NCBI GenBank assembly: GCA_034408725.1
Contig: JAWXCN010000239.1
Coordinates: 1 to 18,339, forward strand
Length of the DNA: 18,339 nt
Origin: Candidatus Hydrogenedentota bacterium
GTDB lineage: Bacteria > Hydrogenedentota > Hydrogenedentia > Hydrogenedentales > SLHB01
Direction: 5' to 3'
Shown here: in pieces, positions 429 to 3,247 of the stretch
Layout: the number at the start of each line of letters is the position of its first letter
How positions within the stretch are numbered: position 1 is the first letter of the stretch
The notes under the pieces: generated by a model
What the model saw: the letters and a program-made list of their open reading frames with translations, nothing else
Databases searched by the model: none
What the model was told of the DNA's origin: nothing
Program-made: the position numbers and the translations under genes

Positions 429-1262
429 TCAGACCGTCTCTTCCTCACCATGTACATGCTGGTGCTGGTGCCGCTTCCCCTTCTTAATCAAGCCCGGCAG
501 GACCGAACCCCCAAGACCCGGAAACATCGCAGAGATACGCGACAGCCACGCCCGGTTCCACGGCACCGCCACCTCGAGTTCCTTCCTCTGTAGCACGCGC
601 GTCATAATCACATCACCAATCTCATCGAGACTCAGTAGCCGCGGACCCGAAAACACCATCGCGCCCGCATCCGTCTGCGCCGACTGCTCGACCAACGGTG
701 TTTTAATCGCGTCAGGACAAACGACAGTCGCCTGTACGCCGTAGCGCTTAAGTTCATTCGCAATTGCCAGCGTGAATCCGCGCACGCCGTGCTTGGACGC
801 AACGTACGCCGCGATGCCCGGTATCGGGGCGATGCCCGCAAGCGACGCAATATTAACGATGTGGCCCCGCTTGTTCGCGATCATGTGTCGCGCCGCGACC
901 TGTGTCCCCCAGATGACGCCTTTCAGATTGATGTCGATCTGCAAATCCACTTCGTTCGCGGGCTGTTCCTGAATCCAGCCCGAGATCATCACACCGGCGA
1001 CGTTCATGCACACATCAATCGCGCCAAACGCCTCGACCGCCCGCGCGAAAGTTTCTTCCCATGCCTCGATCTTCCGCACATCAAGCGTATCGATTTTGAC
1101 GCGGTCCGCCGGCCAGCCTTGCTCACTCGCATGACGCGCCATCGCGTCGTAATTCACGTCTGTCGCATACACCCGCGCGCCTTTCGCAATCAGGCGGTCC
1201 GCGACGTGCCGCGCAATCCCGCTCGCGCACCCCGTGATGAAATACGTATCGCCCGCGCTCAT
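429..1262 (-). CDS. Short-chain dehydrogenase/reductase (SDR)
   Basis: TGCASGIA Rossmann motif, NVAG, NIASLAG and catalytic YVASK. Start overlaps the upstream gene's stop (ATGA), indicating translational coupling. Confidence 0.93.
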   Translation of the reverse strand: MSAGDTYFITGCASGIARHVADRLIAKGARVYATDVNYDAMARHASEQGWPADRVKIDTLDVRKIEAWEETFARAVEAFGAIDVCMNVAGVMISGWIQEQPANEVDLQIDINLKGVIWGTQVAARHMIANKRGHIVNIASLAGIAPIPGIAAYVASKHGVRGFTLAIANELKRYGVQATVVCPDAIKTPLVEQSAQTDAGAMVFSGPRLLSLDEIGDVIMTRVLQRKELEVAVPWNRAWLSRISAMFPGLGGSVLPGLIKKGKRHQHQHVHGEEETV

Positions 1263-2347
1263 GATGTTGCCCTCTGGGGTGCGCCGAACGTTACCGGCCC
1301 GAAGCTGAATGTTGGCGTGATGCCCGGAAACATCCAGTACGGCGTCAGTTCGGACGAGTTGACCACATTGTAAAAATCAGGGTTGCGCGACGACTTCCCC
1401 GCGATCTCCCGCTCCTGAATCATTGAAATATATTGGTCCAATCCCCGCTCCAACGTGTTGCTATTCAGAATAACGTCGATACCCGTTGATTCAGCATATT
1501 TTCTCAGCCCCGGAATGCGCGAATTCCGCGGCGCATACGAATCCGGACCAACGCCATTCTCGCTCGTCACAAACAATTCCTCCGGCACGTGTACGACGAT
1601 CGAGTGATTGCCTTCCGTGTGCCCAGGCGTTTGCACCAGCGCAACACCCCTCCCCAGCATGACATCCCCATCGAGCAATACAATTTTTTCTTCCGCCACC
1701 CCCGCGACGCCATCGGGGCAGTACCACAGCTTCTGCGGCGGCAGCAGCGCCTTGGTCGATTCCCACTCCTGACGCATCACCAGCAACTTCGCGTTAGGAA
1801 AATATGCAAGCATCTCCCCCGCGCCAAACCACCGGCGAATGTCCTGCGTGTGCAGGTGATCATACGTGATGTAATCAACCTGCTCCGGCCTGATTCCCGC
1901 CTGCGCAAGCCACGTCTCCACGGTCCCAAGTTCCGGCGCCATAAGCGGCTCCAACCGGCCGCGCAACGCGCCAAAATTCTGGCTCAGGTTCTTGAAGAAC
2001 GGCGTCTCCGAATTCCGCCGGTAATCCGACGGCGACACCAGCAGCGTCTTCAACCCCGAATCGCTCCAGAACTGCACCACGAACATCCGGTTCAGAATAT
2101 GGATATAAGGAATCGGGACGGAGCAGGCATCCTTCAGCGCGTACCGCCTCGGATACGGCACGCGAACAAGGTCAAAAGACTGGTAATACGGCGCCGGATC
2201 GCCCGCCAGCATCTCCTCGCGGAAAGGTGCGCAGGCCTCGACAATCGCGTTGAGCCGGTCCTGCGGCGCGGCATGCGCCCGCGCGCCATCAAAATGCGAG
2301 CATGGCTGGATAACTGGGTCGTCGTAAACCGGCAAAACAACGGCCAT
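1259..2347 (-). CDS. Metallo-beta-lactamase-fold hydrolase-like protein
   Basis: VDYITYDHLHTQD (HxHxDH-like), LVQTPGHTEGNHS and GIRPEQVD motifs. GGGAG RBS at 2356-2360 on the - strand. Confidence 0.85.
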   Translation of the reverse strand: MAVVLPVYDDPVIQPCSHFDGARAHAAPQDRLNAIVEACAPFREEMLAGDPAPYYQSFDLVRVPYPRRYALKDACSVPIPYIHILNRMFVVQFWSDSGLKTLLVSPSDYRRNSETPFFKNLSQNFGALRGRLEPLMAPELGTVETWLAQAGIRPEQVDYITYDHLHTQDIRRWFGAGEMLAYFPNAKLLVMRQEWESTKALLPPQKLWYCPDGVAGVAEEKIVLLDGDVMLGRGVALVQTPGHTEGNHSIVVHVPEELFVTSENGVGPDSYAPRNSRIPGLRKYAESTGIDVILNSNTLERGLDQYISMIQEREIAGKSSRNPDFYNVVNSSELTPYWMFPGITPTFSFGPVTFGAPQRATS

Positions 2348-2368
2348 CAGGGAGTCTCCCTACCGGTA

Positions 2369-2396
2369 ATTATACGCATCCTACCTCCATTCGCAA
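2369..2396 (-). promoter_or_regulatory. Putative sigma70 promoter for the MBL-SDR operon
   Basis: - strand TTGCGA (2396-2391), 16 nt spacer, perfect TATAAT (2374-2369), just upstream of the RBS. Confidence 0.6.
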
Positions 2397-2413
2397 AAAG
2401 TTGGTCAACTTTG

Positions 2414-2442
2414 GTGACAGAACCCCGCCCAAGTGGTACTCT
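2414..2442 (+). promoter_or_regulatory. Putative sigma70 promoter with extended -10 for the micro-lipoprotein triplet
   Basis: GTGACA (2414-2419), 17 nt spacer, TACTCT (2437-2442) preceded by TG-n. Confidence 0.55.
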
Positions 2443-2497
2443 GTTGCACAACTTCCGTTCCGTGGGTGTGTGGTCGATATAATCAAGGAGACATGCA

Positions 2498-2617
2498 ATG
2501 AAAAAGTTTGTGCCGATCGCGTTGTTGCTGGCCCTAACCGTCCTGTTCTCGACCGGGTGCCCGCGCAGAGTGCCCCTGCTAACAAGCACTATCGCGCCCA
2601 TCGCGGACACGAAATAG
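2498..2617 (+). CDS. Small lipoprotein 1 (39 aa): MKKFVPIALLLALTVLFSTG-CPRRVPLLTSTIAPIADTK
   Basis: Manual translation. AAGGAG RBS at 2485-2490, basic N-region, hydrophobic H-region and lipobox-like FSTG|C with Cys21. Paralogous to the next two ORFs. Confidence 0.9.
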   Translation: MKKFVPIALLLALTVLFSTGCPRRVPLLTSTIAPIADTK

Positions 2618-2693
2618 ACCAAAGCACGCTTATTGAATGCTCTCGCCTGCATCGTGTGCCGGCGAGGAACTACCAAACAAGGGGATACATTGT

Positions 2694-2810
2694 ATGAAGC
2701 AGTTAGTCGCAATCGTAGCATTGTTGGCGGTCACGGTGCTCTTCTCGACAGGGTGCCCGCGCACCACCGTTTTGTCGAAATCAGCCGCCCCGGTCGCGGA
2801 ATCCAAGTAA
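2694..2810 (+). CDS. Small lipoprotein 2 (38 aa): MKQLVAIVALLAVTVLFSTG-CPRTTVLSKSAAPVAESK
   Basis: Manual translation. AAGGGGA RBS at 2679-2685. Shares TVLFSTGCPR with ORF1 but with synonymous codon differences (ACC GTC CTG / ACG GTG CTC), and has Cys21. Confidence 0.9.
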   Translation: MKQLVAIVALLAVTVLFSTGCPRTTVLSKSAAPVAESK

Positions 2811-2880
2811 TTCAGAAGGGTCCGCTCCAAGGCGGGTGTGCGTTGCACGCGCCTGTAAAGCGGTTTGAGGAGACAACTAA

Positions 2881-2997
2881 ATGAAACGGTTTGCAGCATT
2901 GATGGTGTTGTTGGTCGCGGTTGCGGCAGTGTCCATGGGATGCCCGCGCGTAGAACGCGTAGCAATCTCAAGCCCGGCAACCTCCGCCGCGAAGTAA
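2881..2997 (+). CDS. Small lipoprotein 3 (38 aa): MKRFAALMVLLVAVAAVSMG-CPRVERVAISSPATSAAK
   Basis: Manual translation. GAGGAG RBS at 2867-2872, signal peptide with VSMG|C at Cys21, conserved GCPR and C-terminal Lys. Confidence 0.9.
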   Translation: MKRFAALMVLLVAVAAVSMGCPRVERVAISSPATSAAK

Positions 2998-3013
2998 ATA
3001 ACACAAATTACGC

Positions 3014-3052
3014 AAAAGGCGCGGGCGAATCGGTCGCCCGCGTCTTTTTTTT
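3014..3052 (+). terminator. Rho-independent terminator, possibly bidirectional
   Basis: aaaa-ggcgcgggcga-atcgg-tcgcccgcgtc-tttttttt, 16 nt after the stop of lipoprotein 3. Confidence 0.9.
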
Positions 3053-3088
3053 ATTCTAAACCATTCAGGTCCGCGCAATGCTGGAGCT

Positions 3089-3247
3089 GTCGGCGTAGGT
3101 CGTGGACTTAGTGGACGAAGTGGACTCAATGGACGGGATGGATCCGATGGACGATAGATCGCTGCGCCACGCATGATAGGGATCGACGATCTTCGCGACG
3201 TCTTCCGTGGTGAGTTCGCGGTGGACCCGCTCAATGAGCGTTCCCAA
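3089..3247 (-). pseudogene. hsdM: Internal fragment of a type I restriction-modification methyltransferase (HsdM) C-terminal region
   Basis: [30 protein letters not shown]...TYAD resembles the HsdM segment (K)LG.(L/M)(I/V)DR..RELT.EDIAKIADTYHAWR....Y.D, recalled from knowledge of the family. There are no catalytic motifs, and similarity is lost after YAD. Confidence 0.8.
3102..3155. repeat. Six tandem 9-bp repeats RTGGAYnnn
   Basis: gtggactta gtggacgaa gtggactca atggacggg atggatccg atggacgat. Confidence 0.9.

Follow-up and report, generated by a model that had tools for sequence, protein, structure and literature searches.

Three tiny tandem genes lie on the plus strand of the window, by which we mean the whole 18,339-nt stretch of DNA that was analysed here (Table 1). 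The three reading frames of 39, 38 and 38 aa, which a sequence-only reading had pointed out, were recovered together with their plus-strand coordinates in the ORF lists. Each of them begins with ATG, is preceded by its own Shine-Dalgarno (SD)-like tetramer, carries the G-C-P-R motif at residues 20-23, with Cys21 set in the context S-x-G-C-P-R, and ends in Lys. Genes 1 and 2 form an 81-nt direct repeat with 72% identity, and gene 1 gives a profile match with an E-value of 1e-21. The genes had been described as hidden, which is not wholly the case, as peptides identical to the products of ORF1 (P0001) and ORF3 (P0021) are already present, without a name, in public protein collections.

Table 1. 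Features of the three-gene array, with positions given in the window.
Feature	Position	Strand	Description
Putative promoter	2414-2442	+	-35-like GTGACA, 17-nt spacer ending in TGG (extended -10), -10-like TACTCT
Micro-lipoprotein gene 1	2498-2617	+	39 aa; SD GGAG, 7 nt 5' of the start; predicted signal peptide, residues 1-20; predicted mature peptide CPRRVPLLTSTIAPIADTK (19 aa)
Micro-lipoprotein gene 2	2694-2810	+	38 aa; SD GGGA, 8 nt 5' of the start; predicted mature peptide CPRTTVLSKSAAPVAESK (18 aa)
Micro-lipoprotein gene 3	2881-2997	+	38 aa; SD GGAG, 8 nt 5' of the start; predicted mature peptide CPRVERVAISSPATSAAK (18 aa)
Intrinsic terminator	3014-3055	+	hairpin 3014-3048 with a 15-bp stem (9 G-C pairs) and a 5-nt loop, followed by a T run

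The genes are flanked by the two elements that the sequence-only reading had placed there, an extended -10 promoter and a strong intrinsic terminator. Hereby, the putative promoter corresponds to the pattern GTGACA-N14-TGnTAnnnT, which has a single match in the window and none in 200 shuffled sequences. Each of the five arrays described below has one copy of the same pattern in its upstream region, and none of the 34 other loci compared has it; a generic sigma-70 scan, which called no plus-strand promoter in the window, missed it. The terminator was detected by a scan, its hairpin folds with -26.5 kcal/mol (z = -5.5), a value reached by none of 200 shuffles, and a hairpin followed by a T run is located 3' of the last cistron in all five arrays. 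We hence read the region, with a probability of roughly 0.6, as a self-contained operon of promoter, three cistrons with a ribosome-binding site each, and terminator, which encodes three paralogous ultra-short lipoprotein precursors.

Distribution, neighbourhood and coding selection

Arrays of this kind are present at five genomic places. Four are in genomes of one genus, and the fifth, on a contig of 3.4 kb, was assigned by binning to a neighbouring genus. In each case the repeated unit consists of a GTGACA-N17-(TGn)TAnnnT promoter, two to six cistrons and a hairpin plus T-run terminator. The arrays of the relatives occupy the same locus, and their reading frames are kept there: all 17 copies from the five genomes start with ATG behind an SD-like tetramer, the spacer measuring 6-10 nt in 16 copies but 3 nt in the remaining one, and copy length stays between 37 and 43 aa. 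The three tiny neighbouring genes are therefore real and are kept in the closest relatives of this uncultured Hydrogenedentota bacterium.

The family occurs in 5 of 135 genomes of the phylum. When 1.84 billion proteins were searched exhaustively with a profile, 19 matches were obtained, 17 of which are family-like; the other two (P0028 and P0029) are long repetitive translations containing GCPRLL or GCPRSL and were set aside. One of six database members that were looked up has a name, a mis-started 70-aa 'hypothetical protein'. None of the peptides matches a family in Pfam, NCBIfam, PHROGs or PADLOC. A phage or defence origin was rejected (no PHROG match below E 0.06, no PADLOC match), as was an RNA element (no Rfam match at the gathering score). 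A narrow literature search, in which the motif itself was not among the terms, yielded no description of such a family. The proposal that these peptides form a possibly undescribed family thus holds with regard to characterised small-lipoprotein families, none of which was matched, but the breadth is very narrow and essentially that of one genus.

The genes found around the array encode an MBL-fold protein, an SDR, a ceramidase-like protein and an OEP, and none is specifically linked to it. A link in function between the array and the divergent 362-aa MBL-fold gene was rejected, as 8 loci from other genera within the same family have this gene and its downstream SDR but no array. A further 160 loci, taken from metagenomes and named genomes, were compared; 155 of them lack a GCPR micro-ORF, and the five that have one are all places already known. 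When the peptides were considered as precursors of ribosomally synthesised and modified products (RiPPs), no maturase or transporter was found to be kept next to the array, its sole constant neighbour being the MBL-fold/SDR pair, which is also found without it. An origin from a lipoprotein of about 123 aa at the equivalent position in another genus, itself without a Pfam match, received no support (hhalign probability 1.9%, signal peptide only).

Coding selection was evaluated on the 17 copies. The GCPR residues are unchanged in all of them while being encoded by different codons (four for G, two for C, four for P and three for R). Within the block comprising signal and GCPR, divergence at codon positions 1, 2 and 3 amounts to 0.43, 0.32 and 0.62. 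The ratio pN/pS is 0.57 in frame compared to 1.03 and 1.27 in the shifted frames, values that are pooled over 136 non-independent pairs and are near saturation. The synonymous differences noted earlier within the conserved block are thus real, and the codon pattern bears out the selection at the protein level for which they had been taken to argue. The tail gave a pN/pS of 0.90, a value based on a poor alignment. In every identity bin, conservation is higher in the signal region than in the tail, with 0.88 versus 0.68 in the 26 closest pairs. Hence, the conserved part is the signal peptide together with Cys-Pro-Arg, and the 11-18 residues after CPR evolve faster.

Across the whole family only G-C-P-R is invariant, although this invariance in 38 of 38 peptides is partly circular, as the sequences were gathered with a GCPR-containing profile. 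The wider motif S-x-G-C-P-R, which had been called invariant, applies to the trio of the window but not to the family, in which the Ser at -3 becomes Ala or Val in some copies; in E. coli, Leu is common at this position. Likewise, the terminal Lys of the three window peptides is frequent but not general: the 38 distinct mature peptides end in K (27), R (6), Q (4) or N (1), and no array lacks a Lys-ended copy. The description of the family as having conserved ends is therefore overstated for the C-terminus.

Lipoprotein features and the proposed product

A type II signal peptide of 20 aa had been predicted for the three ORFs, and our analysis agrees with this prediction. All 39 distinct family sequences conform to a lipobox rule patterned on PROSITE PS51257 (K/R in the n-region, an uncharged stretch, [AGS]-C, Cys at 21-25), and the three window ORFs, with ATG and SD, pass a genome-wide lipobox scan. 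The window's own genome encodes the corresponding maturation proteins above cut-off, namely Lgt (PF01790, two matches), LspA (PF01252, one match) and Lnt (TIGR00546, one match, 269 bits), as well as a LolA-like protein (PF03548, one match). AlphaFold2, run with a 17-sequence alignment, models residues 4-18 as helix and 19-39 as coil, the pLDDT of the block being 53-56. Of the 38 distinct mature peptides, 37 have a net side-chain charge between +1 and +3. The products are thus most likely lipid-anchored peptides with a mature length of only 14-21 residues.

In the proposed pathway, Sec would export each precursor, Lgt would add diacylglycerol to the invariant Cys, LspA would cleave between Gly20 and Cys21, and Lnt would probably N-acylate the new N-terminus. 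We infer these steps, as well as the membrane location and any partner. The product would be a lipid-anchored, unstructured and net-cationic peptide of 18-19 residues (14-21 family-wide), and would amount to a lipoprotein's 'tether' segment to which no globular domain is attached. Reviews describe this post-Cys tether of lipoproteins as disordered and as carrying sorting signals (PMC4623201, PMC11784454). The acylated Cys-Pro-Arg head, invariant despite codon drift, may be the functional determinant and could act as a sorting or recognition element for the trafficking machinery or for a membrane partner. The cationic 11-18 residues that follow, predicted to be coil, would serve as a hydrophilic spacer that is flexible, evolves fast and has a basic residue at its end.

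For such an action, LptM (YifL) is the best analogy. This small lipoprotein is described as acting through its acylated N-terminus, which docks into a membrane machine, and its Pfam model, PF13627, as spanning the lipobox together with a brief N-terminal motif, the C-terminal part being poorly conserved outside one family (PMC10567701). The GCPR peptides share the conserved lipobox, the short post-Cys motif and the poorly conserved tail, and their head could be recognised much like the short conserved post-lipobox motif of LptM. They have, however, no PF13627 match at E up to 1, carry C-P-R instead of the LptM motif, are much shorter, and are multi-copy and found in one genus. The only link to LptM is a row of a language-model feature search with a score of 0.77, where 18% of the cluster's members carry PF13627.

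We also considered GCPR as a general lipoprotein code of this genome, for which the case is weak: GCPR is found in 5 of 471 long lipobox ORFs, a crude list of candidates. In an unrelated 343-aa lipoprotein, Pro at +2 is kept in 6 of 6 readable N-termini across genera, which is consistent with the post-Cys residue having a role. The residue after GCP is there R, S, V, L, Q and Q, and because Arg at +3 varies in this protein, PR as a general sorting code is not established.

Alternative readings and related small lipoproteins

The best reading of the sequences is that they encode 'tether-only' micro-lipoproteins, which would constitute a new small family. A more far-reaching version, which we regard as doubtful, sees in them ribosomal lipopeptides, the shortest ribosomally made lipoproteins yet seen (mature from 14 residues). 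In this version the acylated Cys-Pro-Arg head would be the working part, and the rapidly diversifying cationic tails and changing copy number would stem from a role in recognition, shielding or antagonism between cells, played at the cell surface or on vesicles.

It is unlikely that the peptides are outer-membrane micro-lipoproteins in which an L,D-transpeptidase covalently joins the C-terminal Lys to peptidoglycan, in replacement of a missing Braun lipoprotein. Lpp is a small outer-membrane lipoprotein with a trimeric coiled coil, the terminal Lys of which is its attachment residue to peptidoglycan. The GCPR peptides resemble it in being small and in many cases Lys-ended, with Lys-ended copies in every array and a tail predicted to be flexible, and the genome holds two YkuD-type L,D-transpeptidase genes above cut-off and no match to the Lpp family (PF04728), to which the peptides themselves have no match either. 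YkuD enzymes, however, also make ordinary 3-3 cross-links and their presence is thus unspecific, and a basic residue at the C-terminus is widespread among bacterial proteins for unrelated reasons. Moreover, the 11 of 38 peptides that end in R, Q or N could not form a link through a Lys epsilon-amino group, and with 14-21 residues, modelled as coil and not as coiled coil, the mature peptides are far shorter than Lpp. Lpp itself is described as tethering the outer membrane to peptidoglycan (PMC13712963).

A second reading that we judge improbable takes them as membrane-permeabilising lipoproteins of the entericidin or colicin-lysis type, which, once induced, would damage the envelope of the very cell that makes them, as a programmed lysis or release, with some paralogues possibly acting as antidotes. 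Entericidins EcnA and EcnB (PF08085) are likewise made from very small precursors, of about 40-50 aa, encoded by the tandem paralogues ecnA and ecnB of similar size class, and their mature parts comprise a few tens of residues. As the sequence-only reading had held, a closer resemblance is missing: the three peptides have no PF08085 match at E up to 1, whereas the genome's own two genuine entericidins, located elsewhere, match with 5e-8 and 9e-8 and carry a CNT-RG-G-D motif. The tails of the GCPR peptides have fewer residues than these, include Pro, show no amphipathic helix and are predicted to be coil. Colicin lysis proteins (PF02402) have a small Ser/Thr/Ala-rich mature part, and the colicin E1 lysis protein cluster is the nearest named one in the feature search (score 0.79, rank 15), yet below the lead threshold of 0.9. 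Their lipoprotein precursors are described as 47 aa long, including a signal peptide of 19 aa (PMC2896534). The GCPR precursors are similarly small. The GCPR mature peptides, in contrast, are about 10 residues shorter, show no PF02402 match at E up to 1, and have no colicin or other bacteriocin, immunity or phage lysis gene in their neighbourhood.

That the array makes a secreted or signalling product is, in our estimate, quite unlikely. Here the mature cationic lipopeptide would be released, e.g. on vesicles, and act against or between cells, or the cleaved signal peptide would itself be active, as in the enterococcal pheromones. A conserved signal, a diverging mature part and changes in copy number are the pattern of many secreted effector families, and the GCPR family, with its faster-evolving mature part, birth-and-death copy number of 2-6 and predominantly positive net charge, follows it. 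Conserved prolipoprotein signals in front of diverging mature parts are also known from clustered paralogues such as Vlp/Vsa of Mycoplasma and Mlp of Borrelia. The mature parts of those proteins, however, span tens to hundreds of residues, are often repetitive and come with phase-variation switches, whereas the GCPR mature part measures 14-21 residues and the array showed no switch element. Against a secreted product stand the lack of linked export, processing or immunity genes and the recognisable conservation of tails within subtypes, e.g. the CPRVPK... group, which favours constraint over an arms race.

Very unlikely, in turn, is an unprocessed small membrane peptide, type I toxin-like or regulatory, whose hydrophobic stretch would form a membrane helix and whose Cys would carry no lipid. 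The type I toxins Ldr and Ibs have such an N-terminal hydrophobic helix and a polar charged tail and occur in tandem copies, as do the GCPR peptides, the helix being the one modelled by AlphaFold2. The hydrophobic stretch of about 15-17 residues is, however, typical of signal peptides, and 39 of 39 sequences have the invariant Gly-Cys with small residues at -2/-3, in keeping with a lipobox. Within the array there is neither an antisense promoter-like site, the sole minus-strand site (2396-2369) facing the MBL gene, nor an Rfam match at the gathering score, although scans by consensus are weak evidence in this phylum. Finally, the assumption of chance ORFs in a repeated non-coding element, which the very short reading frames might suggest, is close to refuted by the in-frame synonymous variation with the third codon position most divergent, by the ATG, SD and length kept across the copies, and by opposite-strand ORFs of varying length that extend over several units.

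Small proteins, and small lipoproteins especially, are under-annotated, and the host phylum Hydrogenedentota is uncultured. The restriction to nearly one genus and the lack of a linked partner limit the general importance of the GCPR peptides. As predicted lipoproteins, they would nevertheless lower the size limit of this class to the bare tether, and because nothing else in the molecule is conserved, the family may provide a clean natural case for the role of the residues right after the lipidated Cys.

Three tandem ORFs and their predicted expression signals

The three tandem ORFs of 39, 38 and 38 aa, which an earlier sequence-only reading had proposed as paralogous micro-lipoprotein genes (products here called GCPR peptides), were recovered on the forward strand, and each has a GGAG/GGGA motif of its own 7-8 nt upstream of the ATG, as claimed. 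The peptides can be aligned over their full length and are identical at M1, K2, two Leu, S18, G20, C21, P22, the next Arg and the final Lys; an 81-nt direct repeat (72% identity, 196-nt spacing) is common to ORF1 and ORF2. An ATG start with an SD-like tetramer upstream is present in all 17 family copies. While the S-x-G-C-P-R motif named as invariant holds in the window, only G-C-P-R is invariant in the 17-sequence alignment, whose members were collected by a profile that itself contains GCPR. These four residues use 4, 2, 4 and 3 codons, in that order, and the amino acids are unchanged in 17/17 copies. In the signal+GCPR block, divergence at codon positions 1, 2 and 3 is 0.43, 0.32 and 0.62, and pooled pN/pS is 0.57 in frame vs 1.03 and 1.27 with the frame shifted either way, figures that pool 136 non-independent pairs near saturation and thus give direction, not magnitude. 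The suggested protein-level selection on this block is thereby borne out. Two long ORFs opposite the array were rejected as genes: since their counterparts in relatives vary in length and span several units, we regard them as shadows. The array is a conserved, selected set of lipobox peptides, predicted to be translated separately.

In all five arrays the first cistron is preceded by GTGACA, a 17-nt spacer ending in TGG or TGT, and TAnnnT, and the spacers are unrelated in sequence. The resulting pattern matches once in the window (0/200 shuffles) and once per array locus, with no match in 34 other loci compared. As a generic sigma-70 scan of the window did not call this site, the extended -10 promoter proposed earlier is backed by conservation, not by consensus score. 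The strong intrinsic terminator likewise stands: its hairpin folds at -26.5 kcal/mol (z -5.5; 0/200 shuffles as good), and 5/5 arrays end in a GC-rich hairpin with T run after the last cistron. Just past it lies a 9/18-nt tandem repeat (GTGGAC-like, ~3 copies) within a 60-aa ORF lacking a Pfam match. On this side of the array, three relatives (G001, G002, G012) instead have a gene of 152-158 aa with an HFEHHF motif; tblastn found no trace of this gene in the window.

Features of the array, its neighbourhood and compared genes (window positions unless a locus or contig is named; G000 is the window's own genome)
Feature	Position	Strand	Remark
SDR	429-1262	-	adjoins MBL-fold gene
362-aa MBL-fold protein	1259-2347	-	divergent neighbour of array
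Putative promoter	2414-2442	+	GTGACA-N14-TGnTAnnnT
Micro-lipoprotein ORF1	2498-2617	+	39 aa
Micro-lipoprotein ORF2	2694-2810	+	38 aa
Micro-lipoprotein ORF3	2881-2997	+	38 aa
Opposite-strand ORF	2347-2721	-	shadow
Opposite-strand ORF	2630-3004	-	shadow
Intrinsic terminator	17 nt after last stop codon	+	15-bp GC-rich hairpin, then T run
Repeat ORF	3065-3247	-	60 aa
Tandem repeat	3102-3154		
Lipobox protein GC-SPQ...	L055:869-1294	-	divergent from MBL gene
Lipobox protein GC-SPQ...	L051:2792-3238	+	divergent from MBL gene
Entericidin-family gene	G000:C21:2667-2807	-	PF08085; 46 or 49 aa
Entericidin-family gene	G000:C82:15975-16124	+	PF08085; 46 or 49 aa

Distribution and genomic neighbourhood

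The genome to which the window belongs, as contig C239, measures 5.17 Mb and is 92% complete. With a three-peptide profile, the breadth check proposed earlier found tandem copies with conserved reading frames in the related genomes G003 (three), G002 (six), G012 (three) and G001 (two), all at one shared locus, divergent from the MBL-fold gene and upstream of it; copy number per array varies between species from 2 to 6. Six-frame searches with the 17-sequence profile identified carriers in 5/54 genomes of the GTDB family (best 138 first-look candidates per genome scored) and 5/135 of the phylum (best 55 scored); three weaker matches of the family search fall within ORFs of 308-736 aa. The window's genus accounts for four of the five carriers; its fifth genome (G004) is uninformative because its MBL gene is cut by a contig end. 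The remaining carrier, G012, is from another genus and has its array on a 3.4-kb contig (L012/L049, G012:C312). The MBL copy there is 82% identical to the window's, as in the window's genus, and a second copy (L059, G012:C125) is 75% identical, as is typical of G012's own genus; judging from these values, the array contig may have been mis-binned or transferred.

Searched exhaustively with HMMER, 1.84 billion representatives yielded 19 matches (E up to 0.001), of which 17 are family-like (37-43 aa, including one whose called N-terminus is falsely long). The other two (P0028, P0029), long repetitive translations with GCPRLL or GCPRSL just under E 0.001, look like translated interspersed DNA repeats and were rejected as relatives. 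A word-indexed search of 5.8 billion clusters also gave 19 matches, and databases and genome copies together comprise 39 distinct sequences with 38 distinct mature peptides (the predicted products starting at Cys). One of six database members looked up carried a name: 'hypothetical protein' (70 aa), from a Candidatus Hydrogenedentes/Hydrogenedentota bacterium.

The MBL/SDR pair is not specifically linked to the array, as it occurs without it in 8 loci of related genera; GCPR micro-ORFs were present at 5/160 further MBL loci from metagenomes and named genomes, all five being already known places. Hydrogenedentota, Polyangia, Leptospirales and further groups retain the pair at 53-85% identity, and among named genome records the closest MBL-gene loci bear the phylum label Hydrogenedentota, the phylum to which the window most likely belongs. 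The MBL protein has no Pfam family above cut-off; its matches to quorum-quenching lactonases are weak, at E 1e-9 to 1e-7, and fall far short of the cut-offs. Where the array lies here, another genus of the same family has a 123-148-aa lipobox protein (GC-SPQ...); this protein has no Pfam family, and no homology to the micro-lipoproteins was detected beyond the signal peptide (hhalign probability 1.9%). No functional hint for the array was found among the other window genes (ceramidase-like protein, OEP, RecR, deformylase, phosphodiesterase, SDRs, CarboxypepD_reg repeat protein, sugar kinase/nucleotidyltransferase, PilZ protein).

Predicted lipoprotein character and possible function

In each of the 39 sequences a start containing K/R leads into an uncharged stretch, followed by small residues at -3 and -2, Gly at -1 and Cys at position 21-25; each also passes a lipobox rule modelled on PROSITE PS51257. 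The full lipoprotein maturation pathway is encoded in the window's genome (two Lgt, LspA, Lnt at 269 bits, a LolA-like protein). AlphaFold2 on the family alignment gave a helix at 4-18 and coil at 19-39 (block pLDDT 53-56). The predicted mature peptides are 14-21 residues long, rich in Ala/Val/Thr/Ser/Pro and devoid of Trp and Tyr, with a net side-chain charge of +1 to +3 in 37/38. In typical lipoprotein families the mature domain is the conserved part. Here, the signal region is better conserved than the tail (the residues after Cys-Pro-Arg) in every identity bin (0.88 vs 0.68 in the 26 closest pairs, 0.64 vs 0.45 in the next 31), and Cys-Pro-Arg is the sole invariant part of the mature peptide. 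As the tails form recognisable subtypes (CPRVPK-GGFTA..ESK, CPRTL.T..VAEAK, CPRRVP...VE.VAK), they are not free of constraint. GCPR also occurs in five larger lipobox ORFs of the window's genome; among its long lipobox ORFs, Pro ranks fifth in frequency at +2 (32/471). For one of the five (343 aa, no Pfam family; G000:C262:9310-10341 and homologues, L225-L231), the Gly-Cys-Pro of the lipobox, with Pro at +2, is retained in 6/6 readable N-termini from six genera, followed at +3 by R, S, V, L, Q and Q.

Among the rival explanations, an Lpp-like peptidoglycan tether would attach through the terminal Lys. The genome has two genes for YkuD L,D-transpeptidases and no match to the Lpp family; the C-terminal Lys noted in all three window peptides does not hold family-wide (K 27, R 6, Q 4, N 1), and the 11/38 non-Lys ends limit this rival. 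Entericidin- or BRP-like permeabilisers are a second one. In a feature-based Atlas search, unnamed clusters came first (0.84-0.82), ahead of a colicin E1 lysis protein cluster (0.79) and one in which part of the members carry LptM_cons (0.77), all below the lead threshold; colicin lysis proteins are described as 47-aa lipoprotein precursors with 19-aa signals whose action is to activate outer-membrane phospholipase A (PMC2896534). The GCPR peptides have no Pfam or NCBIfam match at E up to 1 beyond noise well below cut-off, nothing below E 0.06 in PHROG and no PADLOC match. This is not a size artefact, since Pfam detects two true entericidin genes, not in tandem, in the same genome (5e-8 and 9e-8), in agreement with the earlier view that the peptides do not resemble entericidins. 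Released or signalling products, or membrane peptides left unprocessed, are further rivals. That the ORFs are non-genes sits poorly with the in-frame selection.

Because selection is concentrated on the signal peptide and Cys-Pro-Arg, we propose the acylated CPR head as the functional element. Precursors would be exported by Sec and processed by Lgt/LspA/Lnt at Gly20|Cys21, yielding cationic peptides of 18-19 residues, disordered and anchored in the membrane, with the tail as hydrophilic spacer. The post-Cys segment of lipoproteins is described as a disordered tether holding sorting information (PMC4623201), and Lol as largely indifferent to peptide sequence, a flexible linker being helpful (PMC11784454). 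For LptM, the Pfam model PF13627 spans the lipobox and a short motif at the N-terminus, and the remainder is reported as poorly conserved outside Enterobacteriaceae; modelling places its acylated N-terminus at the lateral gate of LptD (PMC10567701). Most likely, the acylated CPR head would similarly function in sorting or in docking to a partner.

The possibly undescribed lipopeptide family of the sequence-only reading thus holds up in that no known family matches, but its 'conserved ends' are overstated, as the C-terminal Lys is frequent and not invariant. The GCPR micro-lipoproteins are, as predicted from their genes, a real genus-level family of ultra-short lipoproteins, previously undescribed within the narrow literature covered.
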